DNA of 64,000 nucleotides from sequence record PQ511148.1. One strand, written 5' to 3'. Every line of letters begins with the position of its first letter. The stretch's first letter is position 1. This document shows, in pieces, positions 19,419 to 20,867 of the stretch. The notes under the pieces are model-generated. The model searched no databases, was not told the origin of the DNA, and saw only the letters and a program-made list of their open reading frames with translations. A program made the position numbers and the translations under genes. Source of the stretch: Escherichia phage NHEP10.

Positions 19419-19967
19419 TTAACGAGCCCATTTGATGATTTCTGTAATCAAACCATTACGTTCGCTTGCATTAAATCCTATAACTTTGTTAGCACCATCA
19501 TGATTAAGTAATTGATATGTTTGGATTTTGTTATGAATTGCAAACTCTTCAAAATGTGAAATGACTGTATTAAAACCGAATGAAGACAAAGTAATAAGGT
19601 CGTCTTCAAAACTTTCAGTCATTTCGTTACGTGTTAAAATAATTGTGAACACATCATGGTTTTGGCAAAGACGAACATAGTCCTGTTCATAAACGTCAAG
19701 AACCGAGTCCGCATCTTGTCGAATACGTCCATAAACCCAGTTACTAATATATCCACGGTCTAACAGATAAATCTTAGTAGGGTCTAAATAATTCAACATC
19801 GTTTCGAAACAACCAACTTCATTTCGAGACTTAACATCGAAACGTCCATCAACTGTTCGTTTAGGGAAATCAATCTTTACATATCTTTCACTAATTTCCA
19901 TTATGTCATTAATGAAAGTTGTTTTACCAGCATTATCTGGGCCGTCTACTAAAATAATTTTAGCCAT
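19419..19967 (-). CDS. Small P-loop kinase-like protein (NMP-kinase / sugar-kinase fold)
   Basis: 182 aa; Walker A GPDNAGKTT and downstream LLDRGY motif. Confidence 0.5.
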   Translation of the reverse strand: MAKIILVDGPDNAGKTTFINDIMEISERYVKIDFPKRTVDGRFDVKSRNEVGCFETMLNYLDPTKIYLLDRGYISNWVYGRIRQDADSVLDVYEQDYVRLCQNHDVFTIILTRNEMTESFEDDLITLSSFGFNTVISHFEEFAIHNKIQTYQLLNHDGANKVIGFNASERNGLITEIIKWAR

Positions 19968-20867
19968 TTATTCCTCGATTACGACATCTTCGTATTTAGG
20001 TATATTATACGGTGAAGAAATTAAAGCATTAAAGTAGATGAACTCACCAAGACCTGGATGGAATACTTCTTCAGGATTTTCGAAATATTGAATCTTCGGA
20101 CGTCCTTTAAGAATTTGATAGTACTCAGTTTTAGTTGGTTTAAAAATTCGAATCAGCGCTTCTTCAGGATACTTATTTCTGTCGAAGCTATTATTTGGAT
20201 CGGTTATATAAAGCGGTTGACCTAATTGAATTGCACATTCAACCACTTGTTCAAAACGATAGCATGGGTCACTAATTCGAAATGGATGAAAAATACCATC
20301 TAGATGAATAGGAGCCAAATCACCTACAAGACGCTGCATGATGGAAGGACGTATAACTTTCTGCGTTACGATAATCTTATTACCATCTGCACCAGCGTTA
20401 ACCAGCACTTCTTTTTGACGTTCATTCAACACAGTAGTTTGAAGTGAACGATTAACCGACAACATGTCGGTTTTTAAGAATTCGTCAATATAAAACCGTG
20501 GTTTATTAGGGTCTGCAGTGATATTGAAATTGAATTCTACGACAAAAGTGCCGTCATATCCAGTGATATCTGTGATTAGAAAATCACAATCATAATAATC
20601 AATTAATGAATCAACCACAAATTCATTTTCAGACCAGAAATATTTACGAGTGTTATACGCGTTATCTTTATACCATAATGGAACAAACTTAAATTCTGGG
20701 AAAAGACGTTCGCATTCTTTAATATCAGATGCATTACGTGGATATGTAATCACATCACCTGGATTAGCACGGTGCAAATGAAGTTGGAAGTTGCCATCCT
20801 TAAGGATAGCATACTGTCCAGTTTCATAAGACCGCATACTCAAGATAGGTACGCGGAAAATAGCCAT
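19968..20867 (-). CDS. Hypothetical protein (299 aa) at the locus where T4 has beta-glucosyltransferase
   Basis: ORF track; no resemblance to remembered T4 beta-gt; function unknown. Confidence 0.55.
   Translation of the reverse strand: MAIFRVPILSMRSYETGQYAILKDGNFQLHLHRANPGDVITYPRNASDIKECERLFPEFKFVPLWYKDNAYNTRKYFWSENEFVVDSLIDYYDCDFLITDITGYDGTFVVEFNFNITADPNKPRFYIDEFLKTDMLSVNRSLQTTVLNERQKEVLVNAGADGNKIIVTQKVIRPSIMQRLVGDLAPIHLDGIFHPFRISDPCYRFEQVVECAIQLGQPLYITDPNNSFDRNKYPEEALIRIFKPTKTEYYQILKGRPKIQYFENPEEVFHPGLGEFIYFNALISSPYNIPKYEDVVIEE

Follow-up and report, generated by a model that had tools for sequence, protein, structure and literature searches.

Which genes take the place of the T4 beta-glucosyltransferase (b-gt) gene in Escherichia phage NHEP10, and what do their products do? 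We analysed a stretch of 64,000 nt of this phage (sequence record PQ511148.1; hereafter the window), in which an initial annotation had pointed to two adjacent open reading frames (ORFs), one for a P-loop kinase-like protein of 182 amino acids (aa) and the other for a protein of 299 aa, and had proposed them as candidates for a replacement transferase or an accessory step. The proposal is supported by the predicted GT-B fold of the 299-aa protein, which points to a glycosyltransferase (GT), by the thymidylate kinase (TMPK) fold of the 182-aa protein, and by RB69 orthologs of both that lie in an arabinosylation cluster. We consider it fairly probable that the two proteins serve the RB69-type pathway, in which cytosine is replaced by arabinosylated 5-hydroxycytosine (5hoC). 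The genes at the centre of this reading are as follows, in window coordinates.

19419..19967, minus strand: 182-aa TMPK-like nucleoside monophosphate (NMP) kinase, ortholog of RB69 gp45 (98.9% identical), ATG start
19968..20867, minus strand: 299-aa protein with predicted GT-B glycosyltransferase fold, putative first (nucleobase-proximal) arabinosyltransferase, corresponding to RB69 gp46:47 joined, ATG start
20867..21583, minus strand: 238-aa thymidylate-synthase (TS) homolog, by homology the flavin-dependent synthase of 5-hydroxy-deoxycytidine monophosphate (5-hydroxy-dCMP, 5hodCMP), RB69 gp48; Pfam Thymidylat_synt E=2.4e-15

Location and surroundings of the two genes

The order in T4 at the equivalent position is uvsX-segA-b-gt-42, and in the window it is uvsX, the kinase gene, the 299-aa gene and the TS homolog. 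The two ORFs, which were recovered with the coordinates, strand and lengths first assigned to them, do occupy the b-gt locus. On a wider scale the order is gp41, gp40, uvsX, the two ORFs, the TS homolog, a sugar-metabolism block and the DNA polymerase gp43. A 6.2-kb stretch around the two ORFs has 97.6-98.4% DNA identity to RB69 and to some 150 further genomes of Mosigvirus, and all proteins of the block have 96-100% identity with their counterparts among RB69p045-p055; judged by this identity, the window is that of an RB69-like Mosigvirus. Both ORFs have PHROG matches (E=1.5e-155 and 5.7e-45) and full-length homologs in hundreds of phage records (348 for the 299-aa protein and 343 for the kinase, with the same host distribution), and are therefore real genes and not chance ORFs. 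Since the stop codon of the TS homolog overlaps the start of the 299-aa gene (TAATG) and the stop of the latter abuts the kinase start (TAAATG), the three genes form a translationally coupled unit. A promoter and terminator scan was uninformative, with 20 promoter-like sites found vs 26 expected. The 299-aa gene is unsplit in the window and full-length in about 340 phage records; in the RB69 reference NC_004928 a 1-nt insertion (CACAC vs CAC-C, at about 20323 of the window) splits it into ORF046c and ORF047c.

The pair had also been placed directly downstream of gene 42. The position is correct, but the neighbour is not gene 42: the TS homolog is only 25% identical to T4 gp42 and 99.6% identical to RB69 gp48 (RB69p048), and it matches PDB entry 9iqc with E=1.8e-162; it is essentially identical to the protein of entries 9iqc, 9ir2 and 9iqu. 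For RB69 gp48 the activity of a flavin-associated, O2-using 5-hydroxy-dCMP synthase has been demonstrated (PMC13326640). By this homology the "gene 42" of the window is a 5-hydroxy-dCMP synthase and not a dCMP hydroxymethylase. The accompanying assumption that the modified base is hydroxymethylcytosine (hmC) does not hold for this phage type, in which the sugar is arabinose on 5hoC. DNA of RB69 and of Acinetobacter phage DLP3 was shown by Lee et al. (NAR 2026, PMC13326640) to contain mono- and poly-arabinosylated 5hoC; in RB69 virion DNA an alpha-D-arabinofuranose (Araf) and a second beta-D-Araf are ether-linked to the C5 oxygen. That work revised the earlier assignment of arabinosyl-hmC to RB69 DNA (Thomas et al. 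2018, PMC6024577), and its Table 1 gives RB69p045 the name "nucleotide kinase" and RB69p046:47 the name "arabinosyltransferase 1". In comparison with the RB69-type locus, the two genes are near-identical copies of RB69 genes 46:47 and 45.

Fold of the 299-aa protein

The impression that the 299-aa protein has no recognisable motif was confirmed, as it gave no Pfam or NCBIfam match at E<=0.1 (Glycos_transf_1 and Glyco_trans_4 included) and no match to PDB sequences, either as a single sequence or as a 41-sequence profile. With the sequence searches empty, only fold comparison was informative for its assignment. The AlphaFold2 model, computed with 40 homologs, has a predicted local distance difference test score (pLDDT) of 94.6 and consists of two Rossmann-like domains with an inter-domain cleft, which is the GT-B fold. 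Its best structural matches are GT4-type retaining enzymes, at a sequence identity of 7-14%. We infer from the model that the protein is a GT4-like GT-B glycosyltransferase, for which sugar transfer is predicted. It is also, as the initial annotation had stated, unlike the T4 enzyme: there is no sequence similarity to b-gt (BLASTP E=6.3), and b-gt is absent from the best 60 structural matches.

In the C-terminal half of the protein R197, H270 and E275 are invariant in 57/57 family members and stand at the sequence positions expected for a diphosphate-binding basic residue and a nucleotide-sugar-binding Glu of the E-x7-E region; they are candidate UDP-sugar-binding residues. The canonical E-x7-E spacing is not present, and H270-x4-E275 is found instead. 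Residues S10-M11-R12, Y19, D24-G25-N26, Y66 and R74 of the N-terminal domain are likewise invariant in the 57 members. The isoelectric point (pI) of the protein is 5.1 and the median of the family is 5.2.

The fold also bears on a different function, namely that the 299-aa protein is a UDP-pentose pyrophosphorylase which makes the activated sugar and is not a transferase. Its ortholog TH1_063 of phage Thanatos (48% identical), assayed as a His-tagged protein, gave UDP-xylose from UTP and xylose-1-phosphate as measured by liquid chromatography-tandem mass spectrometry (PMC12838424). Yet a no-enzyme control was the only control in that assay, so that co-purified Escherichia coli activity of the GalU type is possible, and xylose-1-phosphate is not the natural sugar. 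Moreover, the predicted fold is GT-B and not the GT-A-like nucleotidyltransferase fold with its G-x-G-x-R-L signature, and the 299-aa protein has no NTP_transferase Pfam match, whereas the neighbouring 561-aa AfhE-like protein has one. Nucleotidyltransferase activity has been shown for AfhE of phage HY126, according to PMC13326640, and the AfhE-like protein is encoded in the same cluster. We regard a pyrophosphorylase as very improbable, and the glycosyltransferase assignment is the one kept below.

The 182-aa kinase

The translation of the 182-aa ORF has the Walker A motif G9-P-D-N-A-G-K-T-T17 and the segment L68-L-D-R-G-Y73, both of which had been noticed in the initial annotation, with core residues kept across homologs; K15 and R71 are invariant in 54/54 sequences. 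In D70-R71-G72-Y73 a Gly follows the Arg, and the motif is shifted by one position compared to the canonical DRY. Fold comparison, which had been suggested as a check for both proteins, gives a TMPK fold, that is, a five-stranded P-loop NMP-kinase core with a LID, and the best fold matches are dTMP kinases. For both proteins the structural matches are the same as those in Table 1 of PMC13326640. In the sequence searches the kinase scores 16.3 bits with TIGR00041, for which the cutoff is 83.25, PF02223 was not reported for it in the Pfam search, and its profile-to-PDB matches to TMPKs reach only E 0.005-0.07, in the P-loop region. As the score is far below the dTMP-kinase thresholds, we call the protein TMPK-like and not an orthodox Tmk. 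The Thanatos counterpart is 44% identical, and distant relatives have GKD or GKN in the P-loop.

Database annotations nevertheless name the protein thymidylate kinase. This label, together with the fold matches to dTMP kinases, would favour an ordinary dTMP or auxiliary nucleotide kinase that is unrelated to the modification; in a variant, the protein would phosphorylate a sugar or a DNA-borne hydroxyl, like the 5-hydroxymethyldeoxyuridine (5-hmdU) DNA kinases. An assay of dTMP phosphorylation by this kinase family was not found in the accessible literature. T4-type phages already handle dTMP through gp1, and the score (16.3 vs 83 bits) is below the dTMP-kinase equivalog cutoff. The kinase co-occurs with the GT (343 vs 348 records, same host distribution), and it is adjacent or fused to it in diverse viral lineages, including non-T4-type phages. 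The sugar-kinase step has been assigned to the C-terminal domain of the AfhE-like protein (PMC13326640). Taken with the survey described next, these points leave a kinase unrelated to the modification quite improbable in our estimate.

Conservation of the kinase-transferase pair

Among 1.84 billion representative proteins, a profile search returned only 229 relatives of the 299-aa family. We then examined 58 IMG/VR loci together with L004, L005, L007, L008 and L009 and searched their ORFs with locally built profiles. The kinase profile was built from domain-trimmed matches in order to keep GT::kinase fusions from contaminating it. A GT-family gene is present in 62 loci, 60 of which extend far enough to be informative. 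A kinase homolog accompanies the GT in 58 of the 60, being fused to it in 2, directly adjacent in 44 and within 3 kb in 12, and in 49 loci the gene just upstream of the GT is the TS homolog. The kinase and the transferase therefore form a near-invariant pair, also in loci without the arabinose genes or without the TS homolog, and this observation is new here.

L005 and L007 encode both proteins as one GT::kinase polypeptide, in which the clean kinase profile matches the kinase domain with E=5.7e-17 and 1.1e-26. A C-terminal TMPK-like domain is found on the GTs P0263, P0264 (L005, 5412-7064), P0247 and P0286 (L007, 762-2561), and the P-loop of this fused domain often reads GKD or GKN, not GKT or GKS. 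Genomic context comes from the contigs of P0264 and P0286, those of P0263, P0165 and P0177 being too short. Pairwise BLAST between the 182-aa kinase and the fusion proteins is not significant, and their relationship becomes apparent only when the profile includes intermediate sequences. In another group (P0165, P0176, P0177, P0190, P0193 and P0261; L004, 733-2343) the GT carries an N-terminal HAD phosphatase of the KdsC type. L004 also has a separate gene for a TMPK-like protein, and the start of the HAD-GT fusion lies within this overlap.

In the remote IMG/VR loci L038-L051 the trio of TS homolog, GT (about 38% identical, 346-358 aa) and kinase is intact; genes of the isomerase, AfhE-like, HAD and U32 types are absent up to a distance of 6 kb. 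As the trio persists without the arabinose genes, it seems to be the core of a broader "5-O-glycosyl-cytosine" module that is independent of the kind of sugar, and these loci suggest 5hoC glycosylation with a different, perhaps host-supplied, sugar. In L058 (4946-10775) a dUTPase_2-like NTP pyrophosphatase, the kinase, the GT and a U32 gene lie immediately upstream of the polymerase. This phage encodes a DnaE-type Pol III alpha and a DnaG-type primase and does not belong to the T4-like phages; the pair is therefore not restricted to Straboviridae. In L008 (33382-35782, Shewanella phage Thanatos-1) the recombination gene at the uvsX position is annotated as two pieces, TH1_067 and TH1_070, with a GIY-YIG Seg-like homing endonuclease and a small ORF between them.

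Proposed pathway and the acceptor of the first sugar

The scheme that we favour is built on a three-gene core of 5-hydroxy-dCMP synthase, GT-B transferase and TMPK-like kinase. The TS homolog would convert dCMP to 5hodCMP with flavin and O2, as shown for RB69. A dNMP kinase would then phosphorylate 5hodCMP; this has been shown for gp159, and the 182-aa kinase may act as the module's own enzyme, which would make the module self-sufficient for nucleotide activation. Host nucleoside diphosphate kinase and the gp43 polymerase would put the modified nucleotide into DNA. UDP-Araf would be made from ribulose-5-phosphate by the isomerase, AfhE-like and AfhF-like enzymes, a route reported as shown for phage HY126. 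The 299-aa enzyme would bind UDP-Araf in its C-terminal domain and transfer the first, alpha-linked Araf to the 5-hydroxyl; the acceptor would most probably be freshly replicated DNA, as for the T4 glucosyltransferases. A GT4-like fold is compatible with a retaining mechanism, and the alpha linkage of the first sugar agrees with it. RB69 gp3, a separate GT just outside the window, would add the second Araf on DNA; we assign it this step because DLP3 gp76 and gp77 add a third arabinose to RB69 DNA in vitro (PMC13326640). The same paper based its argument for a first-sugar role of the 299-aa family on synteny and on phage Thanatos, which is mono-arabinosylated and has only that GT.

Several points weigh against this scheme. 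The accessible literature shows no arabinosyl transfer by the 299-aa GT family, and a different activity, UDP-xylose formation, was reported for TH1_063. The DLP3 ortholog gp79, tested by itself, did not act on 5hoC-DNA with UDP-Araf or UDP-arabinopyranose (PMC13326640, data not shown), and the authors state that they cannot tell a mononucleotide from DNA as the acceptor of the first sugar. The gp1-like dNMP kinase RB69 gp159 phosphorylates 5hodCMP to 5hodCDP in vitro, and in E. coli it allows 5hoC to be incorporated (PMC13326640). With gp159 already acting on 5hodCMP, the need for a second, TMPK-like kinase is not evident. Finally, the GT family is acidic, with a median pI of 5.2 vs 9.05 for T4 b-gt, but the pI comparison with DNA-acting GTs is a trend only and is not decisive.

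An alternative is a pre-replicative order of steps, in which the 299-aa GT arabinosylates free 5hodCMP, the TMPK-like kinase is dedicated to arabinosyl-O-dCMP, and the glycosylated triphosphate is polymerised. The gp1-type dNMP kinase would be unable to take the bulky arabinosyl-O-dCMP, and only the second and third sugars would be added on DNA. Such an order would give a substrate to the extra kinase, which gp159, by handling 5hodCMP, leaves without a necessary one. It would also account for the pairing in 58/60 informative loci, for the fusions (L005, L007, P0263, P0264, P0247, P0286) and for the persistence of the pair in loci without any arabinose genes and in loci without the TS homolog. 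When it stands unprotected in DNA, 5-hydroxy-dC is mutagenic and is attacked by the host glycosylases Nth and Nei, which would also speak for glycosylation before replication, as would the acidic nature of the GT family. The contrast within one study between gp79, inactive on 5hoC-DNA, and gp76 with gp77, active on DNA, points the same way (PMC13326640). On the other hand, this order is without precedent, all known phage DNA glycosylations being post-replicative. Co-expressed adjacent genes can fuse without catalysing consecutive steps, and a self-contained mobile module of hydroxylase, own kinase and GT explains the linkage equally well. The negative gp79 result is given as "data not shown", and a missing partner or unsuitable conditions could explain it. 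Family-B polymerases, moreover, tend to stall on C5-glycosylated nucleotides (bioRxiv 10.64898/2026.07.20.739590). We therefore hold glycosylation of the free nucleotide to be possible but rather unlikely, and transfer of the first Araf to replicated DNA remains the preferred reading.

Other genes of the cluster

The remaining features of the locus are listed below. The pathway roles of RB69 gp51 and gp52:53 were assigned in PMC13326640.

18148-19320: uvsX, immediately downstream of the kinase/299-aa pair
21625..21864, minus strand: 79-aa basic ORF (pI 9.26) inside the cluster, ortholog of RB69ORF049c; PHROG 8601 E=5e-50, 96% to RB69p049
21861..23030, minus strand: 389-aa peptidase-U32-family protein, RB69 gp50; Pfam Peptidase_U32 E=6.4e-11, weak UbiU match
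23078..23479, minus strand: 133-aa HAD-type sugar-phosphate phosphatase, RB69 gp51, AfhF analogue; PHROG 1238, NCBIfam capsule biosynthesis phosphatase E=4e-13
23464..25149, minus strand: 561-aa bifunctional sugar-1-phosphate nucleotidyltransferase and kinase, RB69 gp52:53, AfhE analogue; Pfam NTP_transferase E=8.5e-10
25331..25966, minus strand: 211-aa arabinose-5-phosphate isomerase, RB69 gp55; NCBIfam KpsF/GutQ E=2e-32, 100% to RB69p055

The 79-aa ORF lies between the 5hodCMP synthase and the U32 gene and is given no role in the published pathway. The 561-aa protein has weak kinase-family matches at residues 308-409 (Pfam) and is 98.6-99.4% identical to RB69p053 and RB69p052; its gene is split in the RB69 reference as ORF052c and ORF053c, and is intact in the window and most relatives.

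The U32 protein is the best-conserved protein of the cluster, with 79% identity to Thanatos TH1_065, the corresponding values of the GT and the kinase being 48% and 44%, and in remote metagenomic loci it is 48-52% identical where the GT is only 22-27%. It has ten invariant Cys, including a C-terminal CX4CX3CX2C. The U32 family includes RlhA, for 5-hydroxycytidine in 23S rRNA, and TrhP, for prephenate-dependent 5-hydroxyuridine in tRNA; both are O2-independent and prephenate-dependent pyrimidine C5-hydroxylation factors and require conserved Cys or Fe-S clusters (PMC5727448, PMC6599085). A U32 gene stands beside the kinase-GT pair in 6/6 informative loci without a TS homolog within 6 kb, and one of the six is the non-T4 phage with the DnaE-type polymerase. 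U32 genes lie, among other places, at L005 10053-11153, L007 2605-3552 and L058 6954-8051. The U32 protein may be an O2-independent (anaerobic) cytosine C5-hydroxylase that complements, or in some phages replaces, the TS-type enzyme, an idea relevant to gut (anaerobic) phage biology. As the number of lineages is small, about two of them independent, we treat this as a lead and not as a result. The table of PMC13326640 lists the gp50 protein as "sugar or heterocycle reductase" and its text has no mention of U32, RlhA or gp50; our literature search found no paper linking the cluster's U32 protein to C5-hydroxylation.

Significance

As the genes of RB69, DLP3 and relatives, their fold assignments and the cluster were published in 2025-2026, the two-gene finding is already known, and in a 98%-identical relative of RB69 it matters little as first written. 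The remaining value lies in the substrate of the first transferase, in why a TMPK-like kinase stays beside the GT in nearly every lineage, and in the U32 lead. If glycosylation did occur at the nucleotide level, the pathway would be the first one known in which a nucleotide is glycosylated before replication, with a glycosylated dNTP feeding the replicative polymerase. The accepted rule that sugars are added after replication would change, and there would be a natural route to glycosylated dNTPs.

Comparison with known systems

The nearest relatives are the RB69 proteins, gp45 for the kinase (98.9% identical) and gp46:47 for the transferase, whose gene is split by the 1-nt insertion in the RB69 reference and whole in the window; the DLP3 counterparts are gp78 ("nucleotide kinase") and gp79, and Thanatos TH1_063 is 48% identical to the 299-aa protein. 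With TMPKs the 182-aa kinase shares the P-loop GxDxxGK(T/S)T and the D-R motif after strand 3, but class-I TMPKs have Arg at the P-loop position where it has Asn. The kinase and the T4 gp1 dNMP kinase (RB69 gp159) are both small P-loop NMP kinases of the same phage.

Compared to the T4 beta- and alpha-glucosyltransferases the 299-aa protein is smaller (299 vs 351 and 400 aa). The acceptor here is 5-hydroxycytosine and theirs is 5-hydroxymethylcytosine, and the sugar here is arabinofuranose. The GT family is acidic (pI 5.1 for the 299-aa protein) where b-gt has a pI of 9.05, and is somewhat more acidic than the DNA-acting DLP3 gp76, gp77 and RB69 gp3 (pI 5.7-7.2). A TMPK-like kinase is the near-invariant partner of the 299-aa family, whereas the T4 enzymes have none.
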